Shown here: positions 2,042 through 63,822 of the stretch, in pieces
How the letters are laid out: every line of letters starts with the position of its first letter
How positions within the stretch are numbered: the first letter of the stretch is position 1
Source: Nitrosopumilus sp.
GTDB lineage: Archaea > Thermoproteota > Nitrososphaeria > Nitrososphaerales > Nitrosopumilaceae
DNA length: 64,000 nt
Reading direction: 5' to 3'
Assembly: GCA_965203315.1 (NCBI GenBank)
Contig: OZ241857.1
Location: 640,001-704,000 of the forward strand
Notes under the pieces: generated by a model
Told to the model about the DNA's origin: nothing
Seen by the model: the letters and a program-made list of their open reading frames with translations, nothing else
Databases searched by the model: none
Program-made: the position numbers and the translations under genes

Positions 2042-2428
2042 ATCTGTGTCATCCACTGGGGACTAGTTTCTGTCCTATTTGGATTTATACACGCCATTAA
2101 CAAAATCGAGACTGTCGAGTTTTTATATCTATGTGAATGAATCTCTTCGATTTATGTGAGATAGTGTTTCGCAAGGCTTTTTCTGTAATTTTCTCTTATG
2201 GACTCTTGTAGTGTTTTCTGTAACTCTCCATCTCACGTAAACCGAAGAGATCTGATCAGAATTGCCTTACCAAGATAAGAGATGGACAGTACAAATTGTT
2301 CAGGCACATTGTGGGTGACTTGAAGCAAAACGTCAGGCTTGTACAGGAATCAAGACGATCTATATCCAAGCCTCTGCAGACGATGACTGTACACCATAAT
2401 GCCAAGAGCGTATTTTGATGGTCACCAT

Positions 2429-3109
2429 CTAGATTGCTTTTTTGCATACCAGTTCCCATTGATACCAAGAACCAGTATTTGGTTGATCACGTTTTATGGC
2501 TAGTTCACGTATAGATTGCATGGTCATGCCTCTGGACTCAACACATTCTTTTAATTCATCTTTTGCAAAGAAATGTATCAACATATCTTGCTTTGATCCT
2601 TCATCGTATCGTATAGTTAGTCCATCGGTATCTTCAAGGATTGTATGCTTGTGATGTATTTCAGTAGATATTGAATTTACACGTACAAACAACATACCAT
2701 TGTTTGCTAGTAGTTTATTGATCTTGTCAAAGTATGAAGTGATTATTTTCTTGTTTCCATGTTGAAGTACTTGGATGGCGACAATATATCCAAAGGTATC
2801 ACTAGTTTCAAGTCCACTGATACTGACACACCACAAGTCTTTAGCATATTTTGGATACAAGCAGACTAGCTCAGATATGGCATTTTGTGATAGATCGATA
2901 CCCAGAATATCTAGATTTTTGGCTCGTAATGGAATGTAATTTCTTCCATTTCCACAACCGAGATACAATCCACGTTCCTGATCTAGATCATTTGCTTTTA
3001 CGAAATTAATGATCTCCTTTACAAAGTCGATCGGAGACTCGTCTCTATATCTGCCCATACTATACTGATCGTTCCATCTAGATGCTATTGTCATATCTTG
3101 AGGCATCAT
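2429..3109 (-). CDS. Class I SAM-dependent methyltransferase
   Basis: Motif I LYLGCGNGRN, GIDLS. Confidence 0.85.
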   Translation of the reverse strand: MMPQDMTIASRWNDQYSMGRYRDESPIDFVKEIINFVKANDLDQERGLYLGCGNGRNYIPLRAKNLDILGIDLSQNAISELVCLYPKYAKDLWCVSISGLETSDTFGYIVAIQVLQHGNKKIITSYFDKINKLLANNGMLFVRVNSISTEIHHKHTILEDTDGLTIRYDEGSKQDMLIHFFAKDELKECVESRGMTMQSIRELAIKRDQPNTGSWYQWELVCKKAI

Positions 3110-3377
3110 AGTTCTAACTCAAGATTTGATCATATAATGCCTTGTTACAAAACAACATAAATCACAACCAATCACACTATACAACACATCTAGAATGCTA
3201 CGATTTACAAGTAGGGATTTCATACAACATGTGCTCTCAAGAGATAAACTATACTAGACATGTCCAACTTTTTTTATTCTACCAGTATGGTATCTCAACA
3301 CCAAAAGAACCTGTCACATGCTGTGAAAAATGTACATACGGGATCATGGACGATAAAGTAAAAAAAATAGTTAAAGT

Positions 3378-4358
3378 TTATTGAGGCTCTAACTCTTGAA
3401 TTTTATCTTTGGCTTTTTGCAATTCAGCTTCTATTGCCTCTAGTTTTGATTCAGTAGTCTCTAGTTTGGTTTTCAGTTCTTCATTTTCTTCTTGTAGTCG
3501 TTGACGTTCCGAATCTGCCTCTTCGTGTAGTTTTTCTAGTACTGCATGTTTTTCTTCAAGTGGATCATATATCAATTGCAGTGCGTTCAATTTGGACTTC
3601 CATGAATTGATTGTCACTTTCAAGTCTTGTTTCTGGTCTACACATTTCTGGTGTTTTACTTTCCAATGATCTTTTAGTTTAATTTTGTTCTCTCTGGCTT
3701 CGTCTAGTTTCTCTATTCGATCATTGAGTTCTGTGGTTGATAGTGATCTTGTTTGTAATGCTGGTTGATTTTGGTCGTCAAACACGTACAAACATTTTTC
3801 ATTTGTGGCTGGGTTCACTCTTACAGAAAGAAAAGTCCAGTCTTGTTCTGAACCTTCAAATTCTGTATGATTATGTATCCAATCTACATCAGGATCTACA
3901 GAATTATCTTTTTTGTAAAAGGCATGTGTATTTTCGATTGAAATGGCTCCTTGTGTTAGGTCGCTCCAATCAACTGTTCTTTGGCTTTCAATTGTCCATT
4001 TACCATATGTAGATTTGTCGGTTTCGTCAAATCCAAACTCATATTCCGTTTTACTGATACTGTCCAATGATATAGTGAATGAAAAATCACCCTCAGAATC
4101 TGTGACTTGTTCTGTGATCAGTCTCTTGTTAAAACTGAATATATGTTCGCCACTTGAAGCAGTGCCAGTGTATTCATCAAAAACCAATGATGTACTAACC
4201 AAACCATAATTTCCTGTATTACCAGATATGGTGAACTCTGTACAACCATCAATGGTCACATCTATACTTGCTTCTTTGTCCGCATATACGTCAGATATCC
4301 CTACAACTCCCACTGTAGCGAGAATTGCTATGATACTAGCTGTCATTGTTTTCATCAT
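3378..4358 (-). CDS. Secreted/surface protein with C-terminal coiled coil
   Basis: N-terminal signal-peptide-like segment (..IIAILATVGVVGISDVYA), beta-rich middle, heptad-rich C-terminus. Confidence 0.7.
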   Translation of the reverse strand: MMKTMTASIIAILATVGVVGISDVYADKEASIDVTIDGCTEFTISGNTGNYGLVSTSLVFDEYTGTASSGEHIFSFNKRLITEQVTDSEGDFSFTISLDSISKTEYEFGFDETDKSTYGKWTIESQRTVDWSDLTQGAISIENTHAFYKKDNSVDPDVDWIHNHTEFEGSEQDWTFLSVRVNPATNEKCLYVFDDQNQPALQTRSLSTTELNDRIEKLDEARENKIKLKDHWKVKHQKCVDQKQDLKVTINSWKSKLNALQLIYDPLEEKHAVLEKLHEEADSERQRLQEENEELKTKLETTESKLEAIEAELQKAKDKIQELEPQ

Positions 4359-4371
4359 TGAAGTTGCGTTA

Positions 4372-4388
4372 GGGGGGGGGGTTATAAA
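4372..4388 (-). promoter_or_regulatory. TATA box (TTTATAA) followed directly by a C10 tract, 30 nt before the ATG of 3378..4358
   Basis: Plus strand reads G10 (4372-4381) then TTATAAA. Confidence 0.6.
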
Positions 4389-5004
4389 GGTATTCTTTAC
4401 ACTTGTGTAACTCTTGACATGTTGATATCAAGACATAGTCTGCATCTACCAATCCCATATACACCAGATATACAATTCTCAAAACTCTGATACACAATAG
4501 ATCTAACGATCAACACCAAACAATCAAAAGAACTTGAAGATCTGTGGTTGATTGTTCTCTTGGTTTTGATGTAGTCTCTTGTGTGTCATCTGCTGAGACT
4601 CGGTCATGTGTGTAAGTATAGCCAAACACTTGTCACATACAACTTTTTTGGGCGATTCGATCTTTTGTGGTTTTGATCGAAACTTATTCAAGATGAATCT
4701 AATGTATGCATCTTTTGTGTTTGGAAATTATAGTGTAATTCTCAGTAGTGTAGACAAGGCGACTTTTTTGGAAATATGTCTCTACACTTTGGACAGTATA
4801 CTTTACCTGGAGCAGTCTTGCACTCGTGCATGTGATGTGGTTTAGCATTTGTATCAAAGCATTTGTGATCTTTGAATACATGGAAGTTAGACAGCGTTTA
4901 CAGTTCATGCGTTTGAAATGTACTAGATTGGAGTATATCGGATGTGAAGATCAATCTCATACTGTCTAGATTACTAGTTTTCAGCGAGTCCTGCTATTCT
5001 TTTT

Positions 5005-5703
5005 CTATAACTCTTGTAGTCTATGGTCTAAAATTTCAATATCAAATATTTCACTAGATCGCTGACGAGGGTTTGCTAGAATGAATCTCCGTATCTTACG
5101 ATCCAGTTCTTTGTCATTTACTGCAGGTGGTTTAACTCCCGATGCCAGTATCTCCCTTACGTCTTTTCTCATTAGACGTATAGTCTTTTGATGCAGATGT
5201 AAACCCATCCTCATAAGAAATAGTTTGATCAAATGTTGAGCAATATCTCTACGTGTGTTAAATTTATCGAGATAGTCAAAATATCCTTGCACCAGTATTG
5301 GAATCATCTCTATCTCTGGCTCTACACGCATATCTGTTGCGATCTTTGCTATTCTCTGTTTAAATGAGCGATGTTCATCCCGTGCCAATCCTTCATAGTC
5401 CGCCCAATAGTACTCTGCATTGTTTAGACAATACTCATCTGCATTTTCATAAAATTCATCAACGTATTCACTCAATCGTTTAGCGATCTCTTTTGGATCT
5501 TCTTTGCGTAGTTGAACATATCTGCAATGTCTACTATGCTTGTGTGTACATGGCTTCAATACTATCTCTAGCGTACAACACATTATGAATATTACTTGTG
5601 ATCTCCAAAAGAACCGATTCTCAGCCACAAGATAAACCAACATTGATACTGACATATACTGAATGTGTGATCTACTTGTTCTAGATATCATGTTGAACTC
5701 CAA
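5005..5703 (-). CDS. Hypothetical protein (true start probably downstream)
   Basis: Long ORF co-oriented with the element genes. Confidence 0.5.
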   Translation of the reverse strand: MEFNMISRTSRSHIQYMSVSMLVYLVAENRFFWRSQVIFIMCCTLEIVLKPCTHKHSRHCRYVQLRKEDPKEIAKRLSEYVDEFYENADEYCLNNAEYYWADYEGLARDEHRSFKQRIAKIATDMRVEPEIEMIPILVQGYFDYLDKFNTRRDIAQHLIKLFLMRMGLHLHQKTIRLMRKDVREILASGVKPPAVNDKELDRKIRRFILANPRQRSSEIFDIEILDHRLQEL

Positions 5704-5899
5704 AATATACTTGGATAATATGTGGCGTTGTGTTATGATCCACTAGTGTTGTATTATGATCCACTAGTATTCTATACATGACACTTGGGATAGCATCTCA
5801 TGCCCTTGTACTTGTTCCAGTATATGACATCACCCATAGATATCTCTTTACCACATATGGTACACTGATCACTATGCTTTGCTGTTATCTGCATATCAA

Positions 5900-6445
5900 T
5901 CATCTCGACGCAACGATCTCCCACTGTAGATACTTTGTATTGCCTATGACAAGGTTTACGGGTCTCATTCGTTCAATGTCAAAGTCGGTAAGATGTAGCT
6001 CTAGTTCATACTCTGTAAAATAGTGTACATGTGTATCGTTCAGTATGGTGAAACCGCCACGAGGATCACGTTCTGTGACTTTATTAGAGTTGAAGAGTTT
6101 TGGCGTCGCCTTGTTTGCATACATGTACAGTATGGAACCTCTATGCAATATGCGAGATAGAGTCTCAAACAACTCGAAGGTATTGTGTACTTTACCTGCA
6201 AACGCTCTGATGGCGATTGCATAGTCTATTGTACTGTATGGAACATCGTCTAGCATCTGTATGAACGTGCCTGATCTAGATGTATCTAGGTTGATCAAAT
6301 CTTGTACACCATGTAACGAAACATACTCTCTGCCATCACCAATGTATAGTCCATTTCCATTTAGCAACTCACGAGCCTGCAACATCTTGATGATATCAGA
6401 GATGATATATGGTACTCGTACCTCTGGTATGTCTGAATCTTGCAA
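5900..6445 (-). CDS. Divergent SAM-methyltransferase-like protein, paralog of 2429..3109
   Basis: Shared segments GLYIG/GLYLG, HYFTEYEL/HFFAKDEL, QWEIV/QWELV; motif I shortened. Confidence 0.55.
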   Translation of the reverse strand: MQDSDIPEVRVPYIISDIIKMLQARELLNGNGLYIGDGREYVSLHGVQDLINLDTSRSGTFIQMLDDVPYSTIDYAIAIRAFAGKVHNTFELFETLSRILHRGSILYMYANKATPKLFNSNKVTERDPRGGFTILNDTHVHYFTEYELELHLTDFDIERMRPVNLVIGNTKYLQWEIVASR

Positions 6446-7292
6446 GTCTAGAGTAACTTGTACTGTCTAGTTGTGATAGAATTGAGTTGTTTTATCGTCT
6501 TTATTACTGATTCGTATGTGTTTATCAATAGTTCTAGTGGATCAAAATCTGACATTGTACTCTTTCATTTCTTTCTTCTAAATAACCCAATATTGCTTTA
6601 GTAATCTAGTAAATGAGTTAATCCACTCTCATTCTAGATTGGTTTTTCTTTTTTTGATAATGATCTTGTAATGTAGATTGATTCCCGTATTGTTATACTC
6701 TTGAAATCGGGTTTAGGCATTTATCTTTATCATTATAACATCTAACACATATTGGTAGATTCGTAAGATTTTGTATCGTCTCTATATTAGATGTGAAACA
6801 CTTGTGACACAATCCTGTCTTTGTCATTTTCTACATTCCTACAGAATAAACTCTAATTCATTCACTAGTTTTCCAAGCCTTTGATTTTTTTGAATAGAGG
6901 TTTATCACAAGGTAATAGCACGTCTTGTTGGTCGTCTATTCTTTTTTCTAATTTCGTTAGCATAATGGCGTGTTTATTGGTTATGTAATGTATGTCATGT
7001 ATGTCATGTGTGTAATGTGTGTCATGTATGCGTCTCTCAGTCTTGTCCATAATTCTACTGTCTCACCATATCCACCAATATAGTCAAAAACTGATCTCTT
7101 TGTTTCTTACAGATGTTTAGTATCTTGTCTATTTTCGATCTCTAGAATAGTAAACTGCTTGTCAAGAGATATTTTTTCCAAGTCATGTTCTAATTCAACT
7201 AGGATAAATTCACTACCTGTGTCTAGTTTTTGCATCGTATAACAGTCATACGCTTGTGAGTTTCTTTCAATGTCGTGGCTATTTTATCTATG

Positions 7293-7631
7293 CTATTCAT
7301 TTTTCATTTGTTCTTCTATGTTCTTTTTCAGATCATCTACCCACGCCTCTGATCTCTCTCGATAAAACGATAGTTTATGAGCAGAGCCATCTATACTCTT
7401 CTTCTCAGCAATATACTCGTACACGGTGCGTATTAACTCGTAGTCATATTCATGTAGTCCTGTTATGATTACTTTCCAGAACCGCCCTCGTTTACCTGCT
7501 TCCCAACAGGTATCGCAAATCCAATTATCTTGATAGGATTTATGGTAGCCATAATTTCTGCAATGCACACAGGTACTCTTTGGATCTTTTGCATCAAAGC
7601 AACCGTCTGTCATACTCGATGCTCCCCACAA
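7293..7631 (-). CDS. Small hypothetical protein with CxxC...CxxC
   Basis: CVHC and CDTC motifs. Confidence 0.45.
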   Translation of the reverse strand: MWGASSMTDGCFDAKDPKSTCVHCRNYGYHKSYQDNWICDTCWEAGKRGRFWKVIITGLHEYDYELIRTVYEYIAEKKSIDGSAHKLSFYRERSEAWVDDLKKNIEEQMKNE

Positions 7632-8608
7632 TCTTTACAAGTGGCACAATTAAAACACCTCTCACCAAAGGTAAATCCCACGTATATTTCTGTATCACAC
7701 TCTTTTACAACCATCATTACTCCATACCAGACATTCATGTATATCATACTTGTTACATGCTTTTGTATTTTCAGTTCTTCCAAATTACATACAACACTAT
7801 AACGCTAGTCATCATACTAGATCTTGAATGACTCGTTACAGTCTTGACATTTCATTTTAATCGTATATCCTCACCTTCAAACTCGTCAAACCAATTCCCT
7901 TTGATACTCAAGAGGTGTCCACAATTCATACAGAATATTACGTTTAGATTAGATGTAAGACATGCTTTGTTTAGTTTTTTGCAACAAGTCATACTTTCTA
8001 GATTCCTTTCAAATCAGCTAGTTCTTTGGCTTTACGCTCTTTTGAGATAATCGAGTATTCTAGTTGTTACTAGAATTGGTACATATCTACACATGCGAGA
8101 ATGACTCCAATTGTGAAACAACTCCGCCAACTGTATTCTATGCAACTCTATGCGATCAATTCTTGTTGTTTGATCCACTTGGAACGCTTTGGGTCTACTG
8201 CCACCGTGATCTTGCAGAATCTGCAGTAATGTCGTCTCATATGGTGATTACCTCTCCTGGTCATGCGGGTTAGACATTCTGGACATCTCATTCTTTAACA
8301 CCTTTTAAAATTATACGTGTCTAGACCAAAAATAGTGTATGATACAAGTTTGTTCATGTACTGTTCTGTGATTCTTTTCTCGTAACATGGACATTGCATG
8401 AATAATCCATAAATTAACCATAAATTAACCATCAATCAATTTTTTCTGTATGTTTGTTGTATTATTCACAACAGCAATTTCCAACACAACATCATTCCTT
8501 CTTTAAACAATAACCCATTATACTTTCAACTCTTTGTAATCGGAGTAAACACTTGTAACATACCCAGATATCAAGGTAGTGTCTCTCCTTTATTGCAAAC
8601 ACTAGATC

Positions 8609-19075: not shown

Positions 19076-19256
19076 GGTTCTGTTCAATTGACGGGGGTTG
19101 GCATTTTCTGCACAAAATTCTCGAAACTTTGCAAAATATGGAAACTGACTCATATCGACTAACGTGAATTGTTGCTGTTTTGAGTCTCATACTGTATGTT
19201 CTGAGATAACGTCATAACGATCTCAACCCCTTCTCCTCCGTCAATTGAACAGAACC
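19076..19256. mobile_element. IS6-type MITE (family C)
   Basis: 19-bp TIR GGTTCTGTTCAATTGACGG; second copy at 50047-50214. Confidence 0.85.
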
Positions 19257-26058: not shown

Positions 26059-28572
26059 TTGGTACGTAAAAAGACTACTAAAAAAATACCATCTAAGAAA
26101 GAAGTCAAAGGATATGTACATTCTCAAACCAAAAGAACAAACAATCCGCCGGTTGGGCTTGCCAAACAAGAACAACACTCACAAGAACAACAAAAATACT
26201 CTTTTGATCCTAGGCTTGATCCTCAGCTGTACTGGTCAGGTAAACAAGAAAATACATCATTTGAAATAGATACTGTATCCATACACGTACATGAACGAAT
26301 TGATCCGAGTACAATACTAGAGAAAGTAAAACGAACAAGCTCGTCAAAGACGATGACAGAATTCTTTGACACGGATGAGAACAATCCTCCACTATACAAA
26401 GCGCTAGATTTCTACGAGCATGAACAGGGGTGGTCCAACAGAATGATTGCTGGAGATTCTTTACTGGTTATGAATTCTTTACTGATCAAAGAGAATATGA
26501 GAAACAAAGTGCAGATGATTTACTTTGATCCTCCATATGGAATCAAGTATGGTTCTAATTTTCAACCATTTGTAAATCAACACAGTGTACAAGATGGTAA
26601 AGATGAATATTTGACTTCTGAGCCAGAGATGATCAAGGCATTTCGAGATACGTGGGAATTAGGTATTCATTCATACCTAACACACATTAGAGAGCGTTGT
26701 TTATTCGCTAGAGAATTATTAACAGAGTCAGGATCAATGTTTATTCAAATCTCTGATGAAAACATACATCTAGTAAGAACAATAATGGATGAGATATTTG
26801 GACCAAAAAATTTCATAAGTTTAATTACATGGCGTCGTAAAACAAATTCAATGGGCGCAAAATTAATGGCGTCTGTCTCTAATTATATTATTTGGTATGC
26901 AAAAGATAAAGAAAAAATTAAATATCATAAATTGTTTGAAGAACGTGATCCAGAATTAGGCGGCGTGTGGAGTTGGGCAGAGTTACCTGACGGTACTAGA
27001 AGAAAATTAACAAAACAAGAAATAGAAAAACCAAAATCAATACCCCATACTAGTAAAATATTCAGATTATATGATTTAGCACCATCATCATTTAGTGGAC
27101 AGTATACATTCAATGTTATGTACAAAGGCAAAGAATATGGGCCACCATATAGAAGTGGTGGACGAAGTTGGAAGCATAATAAAGAAGGTATTAAAAAACT
27201 AATAGAAAAAAATAGAGTAGAACCGTCTAAGAATACATTAAATTTTATTGCTTATTGGGACGATTTTCCTTATAATACACTAGACAATCAATGGGATAAA
27301 CAGTTAATTTCAACCAACAAAAAATATGTAGTTGAAACATCACCAAAAGGGATTATGCAATGTATGTTAATGTGCACAGATCCAGGTGATCTTGTATTAG
27401 ATATTACGTGTGGCTCAGGGACTACCGCATATGTAGCAGAAAAATACGGAAGACGGTGGATCACATGTGATACGTCACGAGTAGCATTAAACCTAGCACA
27501 GAGGCGCTTAATGACATCTGTCTATGATTATTATGAGTTAGTGAATTCAAAAGAAGGAGTATGTGGAGGATTCAAATACAATACAGTAACAAATATTACG
27601 CCGGGATCACTAGCAAATGATGAGCCACCTAAGCAAGAAACCTTATACGACAAACCCCACATCGACAGATCAAAGCATCGCATATCTGGCCCCTTTACGG
27701 TAGAAGCAATACCTTCCCCCGTAGGAAAATCAATCGACGTGTTGCATGAAGAGTTTGAAAATATGTCTGATCATATATCATATCAGAAAGAATGGCGAGA
27801 CGAACTATTACACACAGGTATTCGTACCAGAAACAACAAGAGATTAGAATTTACAGATATCAGTACTAGCAAAGAGACCAAATGGATACATGCAGTAGCA
27901 AATACTAGAGAGGATAATCCACAAGTATCTGTTGTATCGTTTGGTCCACCTCACGGACCATTAACCACCGTACAAGTATCAAACGTACTAGACGAAGTTG
28001 AGCACATACGACCAAAGCCAACTATTGTGATATTTGCAGCCATGCAGTTTGATCCAGAAGCATCAAAGATAATCAAAGAGACCAAATGGAAAGGAGTAAC
28101 TATTCTCAAAGTAGATATGAACAAAGATTTGTTGGTATCAGACCTCAAAAAGAAACAAAGAGATAGCGAGTCATTTTGGGAAGTGGGACGACCCGACTGT
28201 ACACTAATAAAAAATAATGGCAAATACATTGTCAAAGTAAACGGGTTTGATTATTACGATACTAGTACAAACAAGATTGTATCAGGAGATACATCTAAAA
28301 TATCCATGTGGATGCTAGATACAGATTACAATGGCCTCAGTCTATATCCAGAACAAGTATTCTTTACAAAAACTGTAGGTAATCAAAACAACGAGATGAA
28401 GAAACTAGCCAAGACATTAAACCGAAGTGATGATATCATAGACGAGTCGTTGATAGAACAATACACAGGCACAGAATCTCTACCATTTGTGCCTGGAGAA
28501 CACAAACGTATAGCAATTAAGATCATCGACGATAGGGGAATATCCACACTAGATACCATAGATGTAGAATGA
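26059..28572 (+). CDS. Type III R-M methyltransferase (Mod)
   Basis: DPPY, LDITCGSGTT; overlaps res. Confidence 0.9.
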   Translation: MVRKKTTKKIPSKKEVKGYVHSQTKRTNNPPVGLAKQEQHSQEQQKYSFDPRLDPQLYWSGKQENTSFEIDTVSIHVHERIDPSTILEKVKRTSSSKTMTEFFDTDENNPPLYKALDFYEHEQGWSNRMIAGDSLLVMNSLLIKENMRNKVQMIYFDPPYGIKYGSNFQPFVNQHSVQDGKDEYLTSEPEMIKAFRDTWELGIHSYLTHIRERCLFARELLTESGSMFIQISDENIHLVRTIMDEIFGPKNFISLITWRRKTNSMGAKLMASVSNYIIWYAKDKEKIKYHKLFEERDPELGGVWSWAELPDGTRRKLTKQEIEKPKSIPHTSKIFRLYDLAPSSFSGQYTFNVMYKGKEYGPPYRSGGRSWKHNKEGIKKLIEKNRVEPSKNTLNFIAYWDDFPYNTLDNQWDKQLISTNKKYVVETSPKGIMQCMLMCTDPGDLVLDITCGSGTTAYVAEKYGRRWITCDTSRVALNLAQRRLMTSVYDYYELVNSKEGVCGGFKYNTVTNITPGSLANDEPPKQETLYDKPHIDRSKHRISGPFTVEAIPSPVGKSIDVLHEEFENMSDHISYQKEWRDELLHTGIRTRNNKRLEFTDISTSKETKWIHAVANTREDNPQVSVVSFGPPHGPLTTVQVSNVLDEVEHIRPKPTIVIFAAMQFDPEASKIIKETKWKGVTILKVDMNKDLLVSDLKKKQRDSESFWEVGRPDCTLIKNNGKYIVKVNGFDYYDTSTNKIVSGDTSKISMWMLDTDYNGLSLYPEQVFFTKTVGNQNNEMKKLAKTLNRSDDIIDESLIEQYTGTESLPFVPGEHKRIAIKIIDDRGISTLDTIDVE

Positions 28573-50046: not shown

Positions 50047-50214
50047 GATTCGGTTCAGTTGAGGGGGGTTGAGATCGTTATGACGTTATCTCAAAGAACG
50101 CACAATATCTGACTCAACAGTAGCAATTTACGATGGTCAGTGAGGCCGTTTCCATATTTTGCAAAGTGTCGAGAATTTTGTGCAGATGCCAACCCCCATC
50201 AATTGAATATAACC
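50047..50214. mobile_element. IS6-type MITE (family C) copy 2
   Basis: Inverted homolog of 19076-19256; 8-bp TSD TAGTGATC (50039-46 and 50215-22). Confidence 0.85.
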
Positions 50215-50472: not shown

Positions 50473-51600
50473 CTAGTTGATGGTTGGTCGCTCTTGTAAT
50501 GTTATCGTTATACTCATCTCTACACCGTCCCGCAAGATGCCTAGTGTCATCTCATCTCCTACAGTCTTGGCCCTTTGTAGATGAATCAATATGTCGTCGA
50601 TCTTTCTGACATCGATACCATCTACAGACAAGATGACGTCGCCTCCTATCATGTATGTAGCATCATCTACTGTTATCGTACTGCTAGAACCAATCAGACC
50701 AGCTCTTGATGCAGGACTGTTATCGACTACGCTGATCACTAAAAATCCTACTGCATCATCGAGGTTTAAGATATTGGCCAAATCTGGATCAATATCTCTG
50801 CCAGATATTCCAATCCATGGATGATTGTACTCGCCATCTTTGATCAGTATTGGAACTATCTTTGCAATAGTCTGTGACGGTACGGCAAAACCAACGCCAG
50901 TGAATTCGCCAGTAGTTGATTGGATGGCAGTGTTGATCCCCACAACCTCGCCCCTCTGATTCAAGAGTGGACCACCAGAGTTTCCAGGATTTATGGCAGC
51001 GTCGGTTTGTATTATATCTGGAATAGAATAGCCAGAACCGGATGGTAGTAACCTTCCCAGCTGACTAACGATTCCCGATGTCATGGAACCTGATAACCCA
51101 AATGGATTTCCTATAGCAGATATCTCTTCTCCAACTTTGAGATTTCCAGAGTCTCCCAATTGAAGCGGATGTAACAACGAGAGATCAGCGTCCACTTTTA
51201 CCACTGCAATGTCGGTATATTGATCTGCGCCGATTATCTCTGCATTGTATGACCGACCATCCAGAAATGTAATCACCGTCTTCTTTGATCCATCTACAAC
51301 ATGATGGTTTGTTATAATGTGCCCACGCTTGTCAAACACAAATCCAGAACCGACTCCAAACGGTACCAGTTCGGTATCGTTACGTTGAATGTTTACTCGT
51401 ACTACACCTGGTTCTGTTCTCTCAAATATCTCGATCAGTGTAAGATCTGAATAACTAGATGTATCAGTATAATCTACATTGCCACTTGCTGTAGATAATG
51501 TTGGAATTGATTCTGGTACAGCTATAAACATTGCAACAAATATTACCAGCACGAGTGTAGCTCCAAAAGCTCCTGACAGAATCATGCTGGGTATAGTCAT
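50473..51600 (-). CDS. HtrA/DegP-family serine protease with PDZ domain
   Basis: TNHHV, DIAV, GNSGGPL, PDZ. Confidence 0.95.
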   Translation of the reverse strand: MTIPSMILSGAFGATLVLVIFVAMFIAVPESIPTLSTASGNVDYTDTSSYSDLTLIEIFERTEPGVVRVNIQRNDTELVPFGVGSGFVFDKRGHIITNHHVVDGSKKTVITFLDGRSYNAEIIGADQYTDIAVVKVDADLSLLHPLQLGDSGNLKVGEEISAIGNPFGLSGSMTSGIVSQLGRLLPSGSGYSIPDIIQTDAAINPGNSGGPLLNQRGEVVGINTAIQSTTGEFTGVGFAVPSQTIAKIVPILIKDGEYNHPWIGISGRDIDPDLANILNLDDAVGFLVISVVDNSPASRAGLIGSSSTITVDDATYMIGGDVILSVDGIDVRKIDDILIHLQRAKTVGDEMTLGILRDGVEMSITITLQERPTIN

Positions 51601-51644
51601 CGATTTATCATGTATGGTTTGTATCTAAAAAGATTACTGATTAT

Positions 51645-51794
51645 GGTTCTGTAAAGTTGTAGGGACCTGAGATGTTAAACTCTAGATCTCAAGGATCAAC
51701 CAAAATCATACTGAGAAAACATAGTTGTGTCGATCTCTTGTAGAGACTCGCATTCTGAATTATGGTCTTCCACTTGTTAAGTCTATCTATTATA
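51645..51794 (-). pseudogene. 3' end and IR of an older IS6-family element that was the insertion target
   Basis: IR GGTTCTGTAAAG at 51645; encodes ..IIDRLNKWKTIIQNASLYKRS; continues at 58688. Confidence 0.85.
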
Positions 51795-51872
51795 GGTTCT
51801 GTATAATCTTCGAGACCTGACATTTTGATATAAAAACCATTAAAGATAGATAGTATTCTAGTTATCATAATA

Positions 51873-53243
51873 ATGCCCACACTAGATTGGATCGGCAAGT
51901 CAGCTGTTAAAGACCATCATAAGACGATCCCCTATCACCTACTAGAAAAAGATGAGAAACTATCCATTGGGAATACCAAAAACATGTTGATACAGGGTGA
52001 TAATTTACTAGCACTCAAGAGTCTCTTACCGTACTATAAGAACAAGATCAAATGCGTGTACATAGATCCACCATACAACACAGGCAATGAATCATGGATA
52101 TACAACGACAAGGTAAACTCACCCACCATCCAAAGATGGATTGACAAGGTGGTTGGCAAACCAGACGAAGATCTATCCATGCATGACAAGTGGCTCTGCA
52201 TGATGTATCCTAGACTATCTCTATTACGAGAGTTGATGTCAGATGATGGTGTGATAATAATCCACATCGATGAACATGAACAAGCAATATTACATTTGTT
52301 AATGTTTGAAATATTTCATAAAAATAACCATCTGGGAACATTGATATGGAATAAGAAAAACCCTAAAGGTGACTCTAAAAAGATTTCATATCAACATGAG
52401 GAAATAGTAATTTTTGCAAAAAATGCTGTTCATTTTGTAGAAAAACATGATTTAAAACGACCAAAAGAACATGCACAAGAAATGATAAAAAAAGCAAAAT
52501 ACTTTTTTTCAAAACTAGATCAAAGCAAAATACCAAACGATATCTTGTACATTACAAAAAAATACAATATTCCATATGACTGGAGTCAAAAGTTTTCTAA
52601 AACTGTAACACTTGGTGACATAAATAAAGAATATTCAATATGGTTGAAAGATCAAAATTTTTCTGCAGGTGAAAAAGCATACTCACATATATCTGAAATA
52701 GGGAGGGTGTACAGACTGGTATCAATGGCATGGCCGAACAAGAAGAAAGCTCCACGGGAATATTTTGTACCATTAATTCACCCAATAACCAAAAAACCAT
52801 GTCCAGTTCCAAAACGTGGTTGGAGATATTCACAGAAAACTATGAATGAACTTTTGCAAACAGATCAAATTCAGTTTGGTAAAGATCATACTACTCAACC
52901 AAACAGAGTATATTTTCTGAATGAAAATATGAATGAAAACATATCTTCGATACTGAATTATGGTGGTAGTGATGATATGATTCTAGAAAAAATGGGTATT
53001 ATTTTTCCTAACTCAAAACCAATAGTAGTTGCAAAGACACTATTGAAGTGGTTTACAGATAATCATGGATTGGTACTAGATTCTTTTGCTGGGTCAGGTA
53101 CTACTGCCCAGGCAGTCATGGAACTAAACAAAGAGGATGGAGGTGATCGTCAATTCATTCTGATAGAAATGGAACATCAAATTACCAAAGACGTGATTCA
53201 TAAGAGGCTAACAAGGGTTATTGATGATTTGTGTTCTACATAA
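51873..53243 (+). CDS. Type III Mod A (TRD variant A, no C-terminal extension)
   Basis: DPPY, LDSFAGSGTT; first 128 aa identical to Mod B. Confidence 0.9.
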   Translation: MPTLDWIGKSAVKDHHKTIPYHLLEKDEKLSIGNTKNMLIQGDNLLALKSLLPYYKNKIKCVYIDPPYNTGNESWIYNDKVNSPTIQRWIDKVVGKPDEDLSMHDKWLCMMYPRLSLLRELMSDDGVIIIHIDEHEQAILHLLMFEIFHKNNHLGTLIWNKKNPKGDSKKISYQHEEIVIFAKNAVHFVEKHDLKRPKEHAQEMIKKAKYFFSKLDQSKIPNDILYITKKYNIPYDWSQKFSKTVTLGDINKEYSIWLKDQNFSAGEKAYSHISEIGRVYRLVSMAWPNKKKAPREYFVPLIHPITKKPCPVPKRGWRYSQKTMNELLQTDQIQFGKDHTTQPNRVYFLNENMNENISSILNYGGSDDMILEKMGIIFPNSKPIVVAKTLLKWFTDNHGLVLDSFAGSGTTAQAVMELNKEDGGDRQFILIEMEHQITKDVIHKRLTRVIDDLCST

Positions 53244-53282
53244 CATTCAAAAATTTATATATTGACTAATCTAACTTAAATC

Positions 53283-53483
53283 ATGGTAACAAAGCCATGT
53301 AGAGAATGTCAAAAAGTACTTGTCACAAATGGAGAATTATGCGATGGGTGTTGTAAGAAAAATACTAGTTTGGGAGCAAAATCTACAGTTAATATGATTA
53401 AATCAACTAAACATAATTCTAAATATATGTCAAAAATTAAAAAATTATTTGAAAATAAAAAAGAGAGAATGAATAGATCATAA
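53283..53483 (+). CDS. Small Zn-finger-like protein
   Basis: CREC..CDGC. Confidence 0.45.
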   Translation: MVTKPCRECQKVLVTNGELCDGCCKKNTSLGAKSTVNMIKSTKHNSKYMSKIKKLFENKKERMNRS

Positions 53484-54689
53484 TGATCTCTTGTACATAC
53501 TCGCATTCTGGATGATCGTCTTCCATTTATTGGGTCCATCGATCAAAATCAACGCTTCTTCAGCTGGTGTCTTACCACCCAGACCCTCATGTTTTTTGGT
53601 ACAGTTGTAGAACGTTCTAAATCCACCGATGAGGGATGTATCGTCTTTCTTGAGACCTCTAAATGCGACTTCACGATCTCGGATTGTACCATTCAATCTT
53701 TCCATCTTATTATTATTATCTCTAGATCGTTTGCCTGTCAAGTGAATGTGTTTGATGTGTCTGGTCTCTTTACCAAATACTCGTTTACTAGATTTCTCAT
53801 ATGCTGGAAGTCCATCAGTTATGAAATTGGTTGGTCGTTTACCAGTCTGTTCCAGAGTTTGAAGTAGAAACTGATCGGTATTGTGCATGTATTTTGAATC
53901 TGCCAGTTCGTGAGTAATCCAGTATCGTGTGTCGTCATCCATGGAACTGTACAGGTATCGTTGTTGTCCAGATATCTTGAGATACAACTCGTCAGCTCGA
54001 TACCACTTACCAACTCGCGGTATGATGCTGTCTATGTATGTACATGATTCATCAGAGTATTGATCTAGCCAGTTGTAAATGGTCATGTGACTGATCTTGA
54101 TTCCCTTCATTTCAAAATGGTTTGCAATATCACGAACAGAGTTACCTTGATTGTACAGTTGCATTGTGTCGGTTATTATTTCACTATCGAACTGTTTTCG
54201 TTCAAATCCATGATTAGGGGTGAATCGACTCTTGCAATCTTTGCACCAAAACAGTTGTACTTTACCTCTCTTTGTATTTCGGAATCCCTTTTTGATTACT
54301 CTGCCCGAATCACATTTCTTGCAGAGATGTAGTTTTGCTCTATCCATTATTTGGACTATATTATTTTGCCAACACTTGTTCTTTTTGATTATGTGCAGAA
54401 CGACCTTGATGTGTTTGCAGTCTGCCTTGCGGTATCGGTGATCGGGGCACTCACATACTAGACCGCGATCAGTTCTTGATACGTTGTATCTTGTTTCTGG
54501 ATTAGTCTGGGATCTGACGCTAAACGTGTCTCTGTCGATCTGGGAACAATGTCCACTCGTACTCATGATCTCGATTGATTTTTGAGTTCTTGCGTTCATT
54601 GCGTGAACGAAGCGTCGTTTTTCAATATAAAGAGTTGGGAGATACTGTTGTTTGTGTGGTGAGTATAATACAGGTGAGTGTTGAACCAT
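53478..54689 (-). CDS. IS6-family DDE transposase with N-terminal SWIM and Zn-ribbon domains
   Basis: CECPD..CKH, CKKC..CKDC, WYRADE, ITDG, MERLNG; likely start at ATG 54599. Confidence 0.9.
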   Translation of the reverse strand: MVQHSPVLYSPHKQQYLPTLYIEKRRFVHAMNARTQKSIEIMSTSGHCSQIDRDTFSVRSQTNPETRYNVSRTDRGLVCECPDHRYRKADCKHIKVVLHIIKKNKCWQNNIVQIMDRAKLHLCKKCDSGRVIKKGFRNTKRGKVQLFWCKDCKSRFTPNHGFERKQFDSEIITDTMQLYNQGNSVRDIANHFEMKGIKISHMTIYNWLDQYSDESCTYIDSIIPRVGKWYRADELYLKISGQQRYLYSSMDDDTRYWITHELADSKYMHNTDQFLLQTLEQTGKRPTNFITDGLPAYEKSSKRVFGKETRHIKHIHLTGKRSRDNNNKMERLNGTIRDREVAFRGLKKDDTSLIGGFRTFYNCTKKHEGLGGKTPAEEALILIDGPNKWKTIIQNASMYKRSL

Positions 54690-54742
54690 TAAATCTATTA
54701 AATTTATAATATAAAATCTTTAGGTCGATTCATTATTTTATT

Positions 54743-57046
54743 TCAATCTGAAGACACAACAGAGTTATTTATTTCATCAATAAGTTCATTTATTTCTTCC
54801 TTGAATATGATCTTAGTTTTATAGTTTTCACCTGCAAGTGTAGATAAAATATCTAACATTTTTTGTTTATACACGGTCTTCTCATTACCCTTTAGGTGTT
54901 CACCCTTGTACTCTATAATATAGTAATGATCATTATTTGTTTTTATTATAAAATCTGGATAAATTAAATTTGGCTTCCAACCCATGACGTAAAATGCATT
55001 TTCGTTTTTAACAGGATTTCTATACCACCACTTTACTGTATCCAAACTGTCAATTTTTGTAGCAAAATCCTCTTCTTCCTTATTCATTCTTTCGAGATTG
55101 TTAAATAGATGTTTTGTAAATGTATTCTCTTGTGGATTTGTTAATGGCATATCATTTGATAACGATCTATACATACATACTAAATTACCTTTCTCTAAAT
55201 GTTGCATAAACTTCTTTTTGGACTCATCTTGCTCATACATGTTTATGCTGTTGTTTATTTTTTCAATAACAATTCTGATGTTTTTAGACAATTCTTTTAT
55301 TTTTTCTTTTTCAGATTTAGTTATATCGTTTTGAATATATCTATCTACTATATCATTTATATATTTTGTCATGTCTTTAGAACTATATCGCGCTCTCCTT
55401 ACCTCTCTTCTAAGTTTAGTCATAAGTTTATCTTTTGTGTAAGAATCAGAATCATCAGGAAATAGAGTTTTTTGTACAGTGGATTTTATTCCTGATTCTG
55501 TTACATCAATTTCTCGAACTTCAGATATACTTGTCAATTGCCCAATATTGATTATATCTGGGTTCGGTAGCATATCTGGCAATAAATCTTCATATTCTAA
55601 CATATGTTTAATTGGTTCAGTGATTGTAATACAAGGTAATTTAATATCATTATCATCAATAACTTGTCTAGTTTGTGTTACATCTTTCTTCTTTTTTGAA
55701 GGTATCATATCTTTTTTATCATATCCATTTCTTTCTAATTCTGATTCTAATTCTTTTACTATTTGATCCATATTAATCGATGATGTAAACACATAAGCAC
55801 AATTCAGTGCATCAATGGGTTTTCTCTTTTGTTTTGGCATTCGTAATATTCTTCCTATTATTTGTTCACCTGCTGTTCTTGACTTTGTGTTCATTATAGA
55901 TACTAGGACATATGCGAATGGATTATCCCAACCTTCTGCTAACGCTCTTACAGTTATGATGTATCTAATTGGACTACTTTTTGAGTTCAGATTCTTCCCT
56001 TTTAGATCATCGTCTTTACTCGTCTTAATGGCTATCTGTTCTTCAGGAATTTTATGGTTTTTCAGTAAATAATTTTTAACCTGGTTGGTATCAATTACTT
56101 TTTCTGATTCTTTATTTTGTTCTGCTTGAAATAGTATGATTGGACGTATGTATTCTCCAGTAATTTTTTTCAATTTATTACACTCTCTTTCTAGAAAATG
56201 TCTCTTTTGAATACCAAGATCAATTACTCTTTCCCAATCAGGTTCGTTAGTGTGGATGATGGGAAGTTTTACCATCCCTTCATTTTTTAGTTCTACAGCA
56301 TTTACATTCACTAGTACATTGGATTCTTTACCCAATTCATTTCTTGGAGTAGCTGTAAACTCTATTACAAAACTTGGATTAAAGTTTTGAATCATCTCGT
56401 ATGATAGATGTGTTTTTGTGTGATGTGATTCATCTAAAATAACTATTGGATGATATAATTTTATTACTTCATGCAAAGATGGTGTAACAGTAGAGGTTAA
56501 TCCTTGAAAATGATCCATTAATGAACCATTTTCTTTAAAGACATTCTTTTTAGACATCTTTTTTGGAGTATCTTCTGTCCTAAATACAGCAAATGTCGCC
56601 ACTATGATACATAAATTATTCTTAATATCAGATCTTTTAATCGATAGTGCTTCTTCTATACTAAATACTTTGATGTCACTAAAAGATTCGTTTAACGTAG
56701 CATAATAAATATCTCCAAAATTACATAATTTTTTAATTGTTTGATATAATATGGCATCGGTGGGAACTAACCACAAAACTAAACCAACATCATCTATACG
56801 ACTAAGATATTCTCTATGAATGGTTTTGATGGATTCACATGCTACTAGTGTTTTACCGCCTCCTGTTGGTATCTTTATACATATGGAAGGGGCGTCTATG
56901 TTGTGGTTGTTATATTTTGTTTTTGTTACTACATAAAACGCAGTATCTTTAGGATCTCCATCTTTATCCAAACTATGTATTTTGGTAATATAATTAACCA
57001 AGTCTTCAATAGATTTGGATTGATATTTTTTAAGAATGTTCGTCAT
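54743..57046 (-). CDS. Type III R-M restriction subunit (Res)
   Basis: IPTGGGKT, DESHH, TAT, EGWD, QIIGRILR, YPDF..IEYKG. Confidence 0.9.
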   Translation of the reverse strand: MTNILKKYQSKSIEDLVNYITKIHSLDKDGDPKDTAFYVVTKTKYNNHNIDAPSICIKIPTGGGKTLVACESIKTIHREYLSRIDDVGLVLWLVPTDAILYQTIKKLCNFGDIYYATLNESFSDIKVFSIEEALSIKRSDIKNNLCIIVATFAVFRTEDTPKKMSKKNVFKENGSLMDHFQGLTSTVTPSLHEVIKLYHPIVILDESHHTKTHLSYEMIQNFNPSFVIEFTATPRNELGKESNVLVNVNAVELKNEGMVKLPIIHTNEPDWERVIDLGIQKRHFLERECNKLKKITGEYIRPIILFQAEQNKESEKVIDTNQVKNYLLKNHKIPEEQIAIKTSKDDDLKGKNLNSKSSPIRYIITVRALAEGWDNPFAYVLVSIMNTKSRTAGEQIIGRILRMPKQKRKPIDALNCAYVFTSSINMDQIVKELESELERNGYDKKDMIPSKKKKDVTQTRQVIDDNDIKLPCITITEPIKHMLEYEDLLPDMLPNPDIINIGQLTSISEVREIDVTESGIKSTVQKTLFPDDSDSYTKDKLMTKLRREVRRARYSSKDMTKYINDIVDRYIQNDITKSEKEKIKELSKNIRIVIEKINNSINMYEQDESKKKFMQHLEKGNLVCMYRSLSNDMPLTNPQENTFTKHLFNNLERMNKEEEDFATKIDSLDTVKWWYRNPVKNENAFYVMGWKPNLIYPDFIIKTNNDHYYIIEYKGEHLKGNEKTVYKQKMLDILSTLAGENYKTKIIFKEEINELIDEINNSVVSSD

Positions 57047-58609
57047 ATTTTCACCTCATATGGTATTTGTTTGAAGATGCAACGCCATCGTTCTAGTTTT
57101 TTGTGTGATATACTACACAAATCTGAATAGACTATTTTCTGTACATTTTTGTCCATCTCTTTTAGATGTTTGAAAGTAAAGATATTCTTAGATTTGGGTT
57201 TGTATATTAGATGAATTTGAACTCCATCATTTGTTGTACCCAACAGAGTACCCTTTATCCGATGTATTGTCTTATTGGTCTCTGTCAAGTAAATGTGGTG
57301 TGCTAGATTAGTAAAAGTACATTTTGTTATATTGCCATCACAGTCAAAGAGTTCATTACCCAGCGTGTAAAAGTCAAATCCAAATTGATCATTGTCTTGG
57401 GGGGGGGGCGGTCTCAGCTTTTAGTTTTTTTGTCACGATATCTAATCTTTTGTGAGTAACTGATCTTACGACATTTGGATCCATCTCTATTAAAATGAAT
57501 TTTCTACTACCTTTATCTTTTTTGTTTAATTCCATTACAGTTTGTGCTGTAGTACCAGACCCTACAAAAGAGTCTAGAATGATGTCGTTATGTGATGTAG
57601 AAGCAAGTACCAAATCATGTATCAATTTAACTGGTTTTACTGTATAAAATGGTACATCTCTACCTTCTTTGATATTGAATAATTTTTTAATTTCACTTTT
57701 TGCATCATTATTAGACGTATTATCGATTATACTGTCAAATTTAATCTTTCCGTCATTATCAAATTCATAATATTTTTTATACACTTGATACTCTCCATTT
57801 TGTTTCTTTTTGAATAATATCCTCTTATCTTTTAGTAATTCTTTAAATTTTGGTTTTGCAACTAACCATTGAGTTTTAATTTCCTTCCCATCTGGAAGTT
57901 TAATTGGATAAACAAGGGTCGGTCTACTTTCTAAATTTGATTTTAATGGTCTAATGTAATACCTACCTCTACTGTTAATGAATTCGTCATCATAAACAAA
58001 TTTAGATTTGTCTTTTTCAGGGCGTGGTATCAAAAATTCGGTTACTTTAGATTTATTTTTTCCAAATACCAATATATATTCATGTAGATCAACAAAATGG
58101 TTTGAATGTTTACCTCCAGTATATTTTTTCTTCCAAACTAATTCTGCAATAAAGTTCCTTGCTCCAAATATCTCGTCACATAGTATCTTGAGATGTGCTT
58201 GTTCGTTGTCATCTATTGAGATGAATATCACACCATCATCTGACATCAACTCTCGTAATAGAGATAGTCTAGGATACATCATGCAGAGCCACTTGTCATG
58301 CATGGATAGATCTTCGTCTGGTTTGCCAACCACCTTGTCAATCCATCTTTGGATGGTGGGTGAGTTTACCTTGTCGTTGTATATCCATGATTCATTGCCT
58401 GTGTTGTATGGTGGATCTATGTACACGCATTTGATCTTGTTCTTATAGTACGGTAAGAGACTCTTGAGTGCTAGTAAATTATCACCCTGTATCAACATGT
58501 TTTTGGTATTCCCAATGGATAGTTTCTCATCTTTTTCTAGTAGGTGATAGGGGATCGTCTTATGATGGTCTTTAACAGCTGACTTGCCGATCCAATCTAG
58601 TGTGGGCAT
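57043..58609 (-). CDS. Type III Mod B, split by a frameshift at a C10 tract (ORFs 57389..58609 and 57043..57288)
   Basis: DPPY, LDSFVGSGTT; C9 gives ..APPQDNDQFGFDFYTLGNELFD..HIYLTETNK.. in frame with 57043..57288, which overlaps the res start. Confidence 0.85.
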
Positions 58610-58687
58610 TATTATGATAACTAGAATACTATCTATCTTTAATGGTTTTTATATCAAAATGTCAGGTCTCGAAGATTATACAGAACC

Positions 58688-58938
58688 CTATTATAATCAA
58701 TGCTTCTTCAGATAGAGTCTTGCCGACCAACGCTTCATGTTTCTTTGTACAATTGTAGAGTGTTCTGAATACACCTATCAAACTGGTATCATCTTTCTTG
58801 AGACTCCTAAATGCGACTTTACGATCTCGAATTGTACCGTTCAATCGTTCCATTTTGTTATTGTTGTCTCTTAACTTCTTACCAGTTAGATGGATATGTT
58901 TGATGTGTCGAGTCTCTTTGCCGAATACACGTTTACTA
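58688..58938 (-). pseudogene. Upstream part of the disrupted older IS6 transposase
   Basis: MERLNGTIRDR..EEALIII; truncated by MITE A. Confidence 0.85.
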
Positions 58939-59077
58939 GACTGTATGCGTATTTCTTACATCATATGCACGTTTTAAGGTACAATAAAACACAAGTGTGA
59001 TTTCTAGAGGCAAATTGATTCATTGTTATCGTGTTTGATGATTGGATGTGGGCACTCTTAATAATACGCATACCGTC
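58939..59077. mobile_element. MITE family A copy 6
   Basis: TIRs, TA flanks. Confidence 0.9.
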
Positions 59078-59465
59078 TAGTATGAGATTAAAGACTTTTA
59101 GCTATGATCAGAGTACGAGAATTGATGTTTATTTTCAGTGTATTGTTTTACAACGCATGGATTCTAGCACGAAACATACAATGTGAAGACGATCTCTTTG
59201 ATTATTGCAATCAAATTACCGCACTTGTTTTTCTAGAAATGACATACGAATACACCAAATCGTTTATCGACCCAGATATCGAACCAGAGCCACCACCGAA
59301 ATCTGCTGTGGCGTGTTGGATAGACAATTGGGTAAACTGAACAATATCAACGATGATTTTTCTAGGAGTGTATTACATTGAGTGATTTGATGTTTATTGT
59401 ACAGGTGTAATTGCATAGTTGATAGATCAACAAGAATCAGATGGATTATGGAGGGACTATTCCAG

Positions 59466-63336: not shown

Positions 63337-63822
63337 TTGAAATATCCAAAAAAGAAATCATCAACAAATTTTATAACAGATGGATTACCTGCATGTGAGA
63401 AATCAAGCAAAAAAGTATTCGGAAAAGAAACAAGACATATTAAACACATTCATCTCATGGGTAAGCGATCCCGCGATAACAACAACAAGATGGAAAGATT
63501 AAACGGTACGATTGGGGGGGATCGCGAGGTGGCATTTCGTGGTTTAAAGAGTGACAATACCAACTTGATAGGTGGATTTAGAACGTTTTACAACTGTACC
63601 AAAAAACATGAGGGTCGTGGTGGCAAGACTCCGGCTGAAGAAGCACCAATCTTGATCGATGGACCCAACAAATGGAAGACGATCATTCAAAACGCCAGTC
63701 TCTACAAGAACTCGCTATGACCAATCTCTCTTTTTGTTTATGATATTATACATGTGTGTATGATTAAGCGATCTTTGATTTTCATGTCTAAATTCCCCAG
63801 CTCCCGATAACGTAACAGAACC
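63337..63822 (+). pseudogene. IS6-family transposase 3' part and right IR
   Basis: ITDG..MERLNG..KWKTIIQNAS; ACAGAACC ending at 63822. Confidence 0.8.

Follow-up and report, generated by a model that had tools for sequence, protein, structure and literature searches.

A 64,000-nt stretch of a Nitrosopumilus sp. genome (contig OZ241857.1, positions 640,001 to 704,000; here called the window) contains at 51795-58687 a 6,893-bp element in which a transposase gene and the genes of a Type III restriction-modification (R-M) system lie between 462-bp terminal inverted repeats. We consider it likely that this element belongs to an archaeal branch of IS6-family insertion sequences (ISs) and is a cargo transposon carrying Type III genes, and that its long ends arose by end replacement. 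The host genome comprises 2.47 Mb in seven contigs, with the window at C1:640001-704000, and encodes an archaeal AmoA that is 97% identical to the AmoA of a Nitrosopumilus metagenome-assembled genome (MAG). A first-pass annotation had described a recently inserted IS6-family cargo transposon, which was right in kind but overlooked both the nesting of the element in a sister IS and its membership in an R-M-carrying family.

The element has identical 462-bp inverted ends and a target duplication

A repeat search of the window returned inverted arms at 51795-52286 and 58196-58687 (492 nt, 98% complementary). Base-by-base comparison showed that the outermost 462 nt of both arms are identical (51795-52256 is the reverse complement of 58226-58687), the first mismatch being at 52257/58225. 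Both arms carry the tip sequence GGTTCTGTATAATCTTCGAGACCTGACATTTT, which begins GGTTCTGT; the 32-nt tip matched the window twice and had no match in 100 shuffles. On an end matrix built from 30 other family ends, the tips scored 36.0 bits each and were the top 2 of ~128,000 window positions. IS6 elements have short, nearly perfect terminal inverted repeats; the tips match family ends of this kind, yet the repeat extends over 462 bp. They also have 8-bp direct target repeats, and CTATTATA lies directly outside each tip (51787-51794 and 58688-58695) and is single in paralogues.

Each arm consists of a 78-nt leader and mod codons 1-128, DPPY included, with the mod ATG 78 nt inside the tip. The arms cease to be identical exactly between two codons of a conserved methyltransferase motif (...DDGVI). 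After codon 128 the Mod1 and Mod2 proteins diverge, and the part that realigns near the C terminus is 33% identical over 165 residues. The first-pass annotation had listed identical 462-bp inverted arms, an 8-bp flanking duplication, ~80 bp of upstream DNA with codons 1-128 and DPPY in each arm, and two mod genes that diverge past the repeat; all four statements were borne out by these comparisons.

Assemblies are known to go wrong at long perfect repeats, and the possibility that the 462-bp duplication is an artefact was weighed against short-read evidence, namely, Logan contigs from four public runs (three samples, two studies) that possibly include the source sample. The repeat formed a separate unitig of exactly 462 bp at ~2-fold flank depth (X1, 393.5 versus ~196; X2, 803.6 versus ~431). 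Contigs crossed the flank/repeat junction (51500-52256; X3 and X4), the repeat/mod1 junction (52227-53607), and the res-mod2/repeat junction (54629-58255) without differences, such that three of the four junctions are bridged by independent contigs of the two studies. Furthermore, both arms run in frame into different genes, and the exact target duplication agrees with the paralogues. An artefact thus has a negligible probability, and the inverted repeat is genuine. The Logan contigs contained no empty-site joint, inversion isomer, or tract-length variant, and such contigs are unable to show rare forms.

The element is inserted in an older sister element

The 6,893-bp element interrupts a transposase gene that belongs to an older sister IS6-like element, now decayed. 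An end of the sister at 51645, similar to the ends of other genome copies, is followed by the 3' codons of its transposase gene as far as 51794; the gene resumes at 58696 and is broken by a miniature inverted-repeat transposable element (MITE) at ~58937. The right remnant has 86% amino acid identity to residues 299-383 of the intact transposase. In intact paralogues the two flanks of the insertion are adjacent: positions 51794 and 58696 align with C1:518374 and C1:518373 in one and with C1:538097 and 538096 in another. Because the flanks abut in the paralogues, exactly 8 bp was duplicated and nothing was lost, and the CTATTATA repeat is a true target duplication.

This comparison substitutes for an empty site. 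The first-pass annotation had proposed a search of related genomes for the empty site and for siblings; neither turned up among 60 related genomes, which held no close DNA siblings, and the paralogous transposase genes serve instead as a proxy. The cargo with its 462-bp arms occupies a single locus in the host genome. The exact tip pattern had no match in metagenome contigs and genome contigs, and a degenerate tip pattern matched two short contigs that had no transposase, mod, or res match.

Other mobile sequences occur in the same window. The MITE that truncates the sister IS (58937-59079; ~145 bp) has 20-nt inverted ends (58934-58953 and 59063-59082) and ~85 to 90 BLAST matches genome-wide. 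MITE-like units of ~170 to 180 bp at 19076-19256 and 50047-50214 have facing IS6-type tips (GGTTCTGTTCAATTGACGGGGG...) with no open reading frame (ORF) between them. A further partial transposase copy (63362-63822; residues 284-403, 88% identical) has an end at 63822.

The transposase is a distant IS6-like protein

The transposase gene encodes a protein that matched PF13610 (DDE_Tnp_IS240) with 61.2 bits against a cut-off of 27, and its tblastn matches included annotated IS6, IS257, IS1216, ISS1, and IS240 transposases. In an alignment with 13 relatives, the N terminus showed a CxC...CxH (SWIM-like) motif, and C123, C126, C149, C152, D233, D292, and E330/E340 were invariant across the 14 sequences. 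The relatives begin at ORF residue 51, so the transposase start is likely near 54539. A search of the PDB did not find a solved relative. Judged from these features, the gene encodes an intact-looking zinc finger and DDE protein. There is no short inverted repeat beside the transposase, and family-type ends near its stop codon score at most -8.0 bits. The first-pass annotation had recognized both IS6-type tips with a matching transposase and a SWIM-DDE protein without adjoining inverted repeats; the Pfam, tblastn, and tip scores support the former, and the observed motif and the negative matrix search nearby support the latter.

IS6-family elements move by replicative (cointegrate) or targeted conservative transposition. 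By analogy, the transposase would act on both tips, and copy-in transposition is the probable mode of movement. For the last move, a conservative, duplication-free IS26-type route is disfavored by the target duplication. A different possibility is that the element is no longer self-mobile, being a dead or nonautonomous composite that is moved, if at all, in trans by the transposase of a sibling element (C1:517235-518440, 88.6% identical). The tip core is nearly the same in the element and the sibling, and both mod genes are incomplete as assembled (see below). Against this, the transposase ORF is full length with all residues that are invariant in the 14 relatives, and the arms and target duplication are perfect, which indicates that the last move was recent. 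We therefore regard a dead composite as rather unlikely.

Related archaeal elements carry R-M genes between short ends

The sibling element in the same genome (G000:C1:511494-518527; positions 1494-8527 of locus L001) measures 7,034 bp, ends in repeats of ~31 bp, and is flanked by the target duplication GATATTTG. A distance of 87 bp separates its transposase from the right tip. Its cargo consists of an ORF with a coiled coil and a Type IIL gene similar to MmeI that is broken into two ORFs by an IS5-like (DDE_Tnp_4) element.

Relatives were collected in two scans. The first, made with the transposase and one genome per species, gave 61 loci, mostly from Nitrosopumilus or Nitrosopumilaceae MAGs; the second, made with the alignment, kept 80 of 466 relatives, of which 50 were new. 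The 466 also included relatives from Bathyarchaeia, Methanoperedens, Methanoregula, and a few bacteria. Boundaries were assigned by a script that required a GGTTCTG-type tip (IS257 ends start GGTTCTG) within 400 to 450 bp after the transposase and an inverted partner upstream. The first scan yielded 17 elements with perfect 8-bp duplications (1.1 to 7.7 kb) and 11 tip pairs whose duplication was imperfect or missing, and at 33 loci no pair was found; the corresponding numbers for the 50 new loci were 7, 3, and 40. In bounded relatives the transposase lies beside one end, with the cargo beyond.

Cargo was searched with Pfam (58 of 82 ORFs from the first scan, transposase ORFs excluded, and 17 ORFs from the second; ORF threshold, 80 to 90 aa). 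DNA methyltransferase or restriction-nuclease families were present in 14 of the 24 duplication-bounded elements and comprised N6_N4_Mtase, EcoRI-like methylase, CfrBI, BglII, BsaWI, GmrSD, HNH partners, and Type IIG fusions; three elements had no cargo, and seven had other or unknown genes. All five imperfectly bounded elements that were tested also had methyltransferase or restriction-nuclease genes. As a control, 150 ORFs drawn at random from 238 flank ORFs of at least 150 aa at the same 24 loci, a length threshold unlike the 80 to 90 aa used for cargo, included one methyltransferase (Dam-like) and no restriction nuclease.

The ends measured 19 to 44 bp in all 17 bounded relatives measured, and no long inverted repeat with IS6-type tips was present in the 111 loci. 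Three candidates with long ends (L033, 737 bp; L054; L092) were rejected, as they lack IS6-type tips. With relatives at 19 to 44 bp and the sibling at ~31 bp, the 462-bp ends are an exception, and long ends do not belong to the general layout of the family.

Several observations concern the wider set of loci. L033 (approximately G061:C1:457690-470132, a Nitrosopumilus MAG) contains a 737-bp, 99% identical inverted repeat around ~11 kb with several transposase genes. Transposase relatives with 39 to 44% identity occur in L046 (Methanoperedens), with a Type IIG gene, and L111 (Bathyarchaeota), with genes for a BsaWI-like nuclease and methyltransferases. Most of the Methanoperedens, Bathyarchaeia, Methanoregula, and bacterial relatives were left unbounded by the tip-specific script. 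The flanks in L029 and L028 carry Cas12f/TnpB-like, IS66, and IS110 genes; related elements tend toward transposon-rich regions.

The cargo is a Type III system with two mod genes that are incomplete as assembled

The cargo is laid out as a mod2-res operon read from the right tip toward the transposase and a mod1 gene read from the left tip (Table 1). Both Mod proteins have PF01555 with a 100- to 160-residue insert, DPPY at residues 65-68, and FAGSG or FVGSG near the end, as expected of Type III Mod subunits, and their homologues are named Mod or adenine-specific methyltransferase in their sources. As expected of a Type III Res subunit, superfamily 2 (SF2) helicase motifs and a PD-(D/E)xK nuclease are encoded just after mod. 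Res has GGGKT, DESH, and QIIGRILR (helicase motifs I, II, and VI) and a PD...EYK nuclease motif, and matches EcoP15I Res (E value, 1.5e-7). Over residues 5-762 it shares 50.7% identity with a Cenarchaeum MAG homologue, and the protein is full length and apparently intact. The homologous mod-res pair of the Cenarchaeum MAG (L075) does not adjoin this transposase. Type III enzymes hemimethylate an asymmetric site, and for cleavage they require ATP and two sites in inverse orientation. The matches found here agree with the earlier assignment of a Type III mod-res cargo.

Both mod genes depart from their homologues at the 3' end. The best Mod1 homologues are 571 to 595 aa long, with ~55% identity, and align only to their residue ~450; ~120 further residues are absent from Mod1. 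The best Mod2 homologues are 518 to 530 aa long, with 60 to 63% identity. When eight homologues were aligned by tblastn, they followed the mod2 body from 58609 to ~57404, and their last 115 to 122 residues continued in the next frame (-2), from 57402 or 57381 to 57046. Because the C termini of the homologues map to this shifted frame, the 81-aa ORF at 57043-57288, which the first-pass gene map had left unnamed, is assigned to the Mod2 C-terminal domain. This domain is conserved to its last residues (...FKQIPYEVKI), and the stop codon of the shifted frame overlaps the res ATG (ATGA); on this arrangement, the domain is predicted to be translationally coupled to res. A working Type III system with two specificities, as proposed earlier, is not supported, with mod1 lacking its C-terminal domain and mod2 frameshifted. 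The Mod heterodimers or exchange of target recognition domains that the first-pass annotation thought possible are speculative. Among the matches listed, the closest proteins are 63% (Mod2) and 57% (Mod1) identical, and no sibling with the same 5' part is among them.

Three smaller observations belong here. The small Cys-rich ORF between mod1 and the transposase gene (Table 1) had no family match and no convincing relative in the host genome or stored loci (best E value, 0.012). Distant Mod-like genes at window positions 26437-27531 and at G000:C5:308618-309760 are 22 to 31% identical to Mod homologues. A G11 tract lies ~400 bp upstream of the match in the C5 gene.

Table 1. Features of the element and its insertion site (window coordinates)
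Feature	Position	Strand	Evidence
Terminal inverted repeat of decayed sister IS6-like element (insertion target), GGTTCTGTAAAG...	51645..51676	+	30.1 bits, 4th of ~128,000 positions
Sister transposase 3' remnant, left of insertion	51689..51794	-	51731-51790 82-88% identical to paralogue 3' ends
Left copy of 8-bp target duplication, CTATTATA	51787..51794	.	Present once in paralogues
Left 462-bp terminal inverted repeat (IS6-type tip, 78-nt leader, mod codons 1-128)	51795..52256	+	36.0-bit tip; two-copy unitig
mod1, Type III-like N6-adenine methyltransferase, 456 aa, without C-terminal domain	51873..53243	+	PF01555, 118.5 bits
Small Cys-rich ORF, 66 aa, doubtful reality	53283..53483	+	Lies in 235-bp spacer found just in this element
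IS6-like DDE transposase, 403-aa ORF	53478..54689	-	PF13610, named IS6 matches, invariant residues
res, Type III restriction subunit, 767 aa	54743..57046	-	PF04851, 67.7 bits
mod2 C-terminal domain, frame shifted by one base	57043..57402	-	tblastn; contains 81-aa ORF 57043-57288
mod2 body, 406 aa as assembled	57389..58609	-	PF01555, 151.6 bits
C10 tract at mod2 frameshift (G10 on + strand)	57399..57408	-	Exact point of frame change
Right 462-bp terminal inverted repeat	58226..58687	-	Identity with left arm, end matrix, contigs
Right copy of 8-bp target duplication, CTATTATA	58688..58695	.	Paralogue comparison
Sister transposase remnant, right part, ended by MITE at ~58937	58696..58940	-	75-81% nucleotide identity to paralogues

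A C10 tract may switch mod2 and res

The mod2 frame changes at a C10 tract in a variable linker where homologues have no poly-proline. A simple repeat inside the reading frame is the hallmark of a phase-variable mod gene, and the C10 tract lies inside that of mod2. Since the same tract length is present in four short-read contig sets, it is not a long-read homopolymer error. A C9 or C12 tract would restore the frame to give a Mod2 of ~520 aa with a stop codon overlapping the res start, which makes the tract a plausible slippage switch for both mod2 and res, one that at present would be OFF.

The host genome, at ~39% G+C, contains 40 G or C homopolymers of at least 8 nt, mostly 10 to 17 nt, two of them in the window (4372-4381 and 57399-57408). 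Approximately 14 lie just after a TATA-like TTTATAA (one repeated context), ~7 lie inside IS6-type ends (GGTTCTTTTAACTTAAC-Gn), and 3 precede a repeated gene start. On C1, the runs are G up to ~697 kb and C from ~708 kb. The runs could be archaeal contingency loci or a property of the genome's repeats; C10, as one of ~40 long G/C runs, raises the possibility of contingency loci in an archaeon.

The long ends may have arisen by end replacement

The region between the transposase and the left tip bears on how the long ends arose. Similarity to other transposase copies fades 20 to 43 bp past the stop codon and is followed by 235 unique bp up to the mod1 stop. Near the transposase stop the end matrix gives at most -8.0 bits, a value equalled or exceeded at 544 window positions. 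Candidate relics of a decayed end at ~53232 and 53367-53395 were rejected, since their scores (-13.6 and -8.0 bits) are no better than those of 544 to 1,960 window positions. The loss of the mod1 3' domain points to a rearrangement on this side of the element.

We infer the following end-replacement history from these sequence comparisons. The ancestor would have had the order tip-mod2-res-tnp-tip, and its transposase-side tip would have been lost, together with the 3' part of mod1, in a rearrangement. An inverted copy of the right tip, the 78-nt leader, and codons 1-128 of mod2 (or mod1) would then have formed a new left end, with the copied module joined to a second, homologous mod gene at the conserved methyltransferase motif. 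The route may have been recombination between the two mod genes or copying during the repair of a broken end. The outcome would have been the restoration of two matched ends and the trapping of mod1, after which the whole element would have transposed to its present site.

Gene conversion would explain the arms without the loss of an end. The ancestor would already have had the order tip-mod1...tnp, res, mod2-tip, and the 462-bp identity would have come later, anchored by the matching tips. The N-terminal part of both Mods is conserved, at ~60% identity to both homologue sets; the identity ends abruptly inside a conserved motif; and perfect identity fits ongoing homogenization. However, the transposase lies within 450 bp of one end in all bounded relatives (partly by search design), whereas here the distance from stop codon to tip is 1,683 bp. 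Mod1 lacks its 3' domain, the sign of rearrangement noted above, and a conversion tract would need to cross a 78-nt leader of possibly nonhomologous sequence. On balance gene conversion appears unlikely, though it deserves to be taken seriously.

A second alternative is that the repeats in the mod genes allow methylation specificity to be switched by inversion, as in Type I hsdS systems, where a nearby site-specific recombinase creates new gene combinations. In its favor are the position of the inverted repeats, in two genes that bear specificity and enclose the remainder of the system, and Type I cases with repeats in S genes, described in the available portion of Furuta et al. (2010; PMC2853133). 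With one and the same leader and 5' half in each arm, a flip of the middle would yield the two existing genes again, which excludes the switch on logical grounds. In addition, the element ORFs showed no tyrosine or serine recombinase family, and the contigs, which cannot show rare forms, contained no inversion joints. Such a switch is very improbable.

More speculatively, the long ends could be a capture device, in which the module of tip and 5' mod recombines with a resident homologous mod gene in opposite orientation; we regard this as doubtful. If true, a new recognition domain would be grafted and a new outer end created, mobilizing everything between, and archaeal IS6-like elements would be dedicated vehicles that spread and reshuffle R-M specificities, with slippage-prone G/C tracts as ON/OFF control.

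Several results weigh against an IS6-branch cargo transposon with a replaced end and against the switch proposed for its genes. The transposase scored 113.7 bits on the NCBIfam IS6 equivalog model, under the cut-off of 125, which places it on a distant IS6 branch, and its identity to named IS6 transposases is just 25 to 28% over ~270 residues (residues ~110 to 390). The end matrix found no relic of a lost end, and the host genome contains neither a donor site nor, as a possible marker of one, a Mod1-type C-terminal piece. The shared 128 residues are 59.2% identical to the 20 best Mod2-type homologues and 60.6% identical to the 20 best Mod1-type homologues; being equally close to both, they do not tell the donor or the direction. 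No other family member has a rebuilt end; the tip-specific script missed 73 of the 111 loci and would miss elements like this one. No transposition was seen, and neither an empty-site genome nor a second copy of the element was found in the host genome, the 60 related genomes, or the contig collections. Finally, the uniform length of the C10 tract in the four contig sets shows no switching, with the limit that contigs drop rare variants.

Significance and relation to known systems

Whether R-M systems move as selfish genes, and on which vehicles, is a longstanding question; here, a vehicle is visible in the form of an IS6-like transposase. Vehicles of this family in Nitrosopumilus-type and other archaea carry Type II, IIG/IIL, III, and IV systems (14 of 24 bounded elements), which offers a testable route for defense-gene exchange among ammonia-oxidizing archaea, abundant organisms that are hard to manipulate genetically. 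The 462-bp ends suggest how an element can rebuild a lost end and gain a second methyltransferase. The literature searched contained no description of an IS6-like R-M transposon family in these archaea, and the word "IS6" by itself appears nowhere in the main text of Krupovic et al. (2019). What appears to be new is that archaea have a branch of IS6-like elements with R-M cargo, one of which may have had an end rebuilt.

The element resembles IS6 members such as IS26, IS257, IS240, and ISS1 in its homologous DDE transposase, its 8-bp target duplication, and the type of its short-end tip. According to the accessible parts of Varani et al. (2021; PMC7986276), IS6 members have 14-bp ends, generate 8-bp repeats, and measure ~0.8 kb (range, 0.7 to 0.9 kb and up to 1.76 kb); a passenger gene is given for a single member, ISDsp3; and clades h and i have long transposases with an N-terminal zinc finger, to which the Cys-rich N-terminal extension found here is similar. 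In contrast to the compact one-gene elements described there, the present element has 6.9 kb and five genes (mod1, the transposase gene, res, and mod2 among them), its relatives routinely carry 1 to 6 kb of cargo, and its host lineage is not among the archaeal groups named in those parts.

Two further comparisons concern the cargo. Tn7-like transposons share a defense-rich cargo, as the available text of Benler et al. (2021; PMC8649781) describes. Their transposition machinery is a different one, with several Tns proteins and site-specific targeting; they are also much larger and reside in bacteria. In the phasevarions of bacterial pathogens, Type III mod genes are likewise phase variable through a simple repeat that lies inside the reading frame and determines it. 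In these the repeat lies near the 5' end, whereas the tract here precedes the C-terminal domain and has one length in the contigs. The phase-variable Type III Mods covered in the consulted part of a 2026 review (PMC13076061) are all bacterial.

A parallel in layout is provided by the R-M units of Furuta, Abe, and Kobayashi (2010; PMC2853133). As far as the accessible sections of that paper go, these units lie between long inverted repeats with 8-bp duplications (60/65-bp repeats in the Xanthomonas oryzae case), have no transposase, and were not linked by the authors to any mover, and no archaeal case survived the screen. The present element shares with them R-M genes between inverted repeats and an 8-bp target duplication. 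Unlike them, it encodes its own transposase, belongs to a large family, and has long repeats that extend over the 5' part of a gene.

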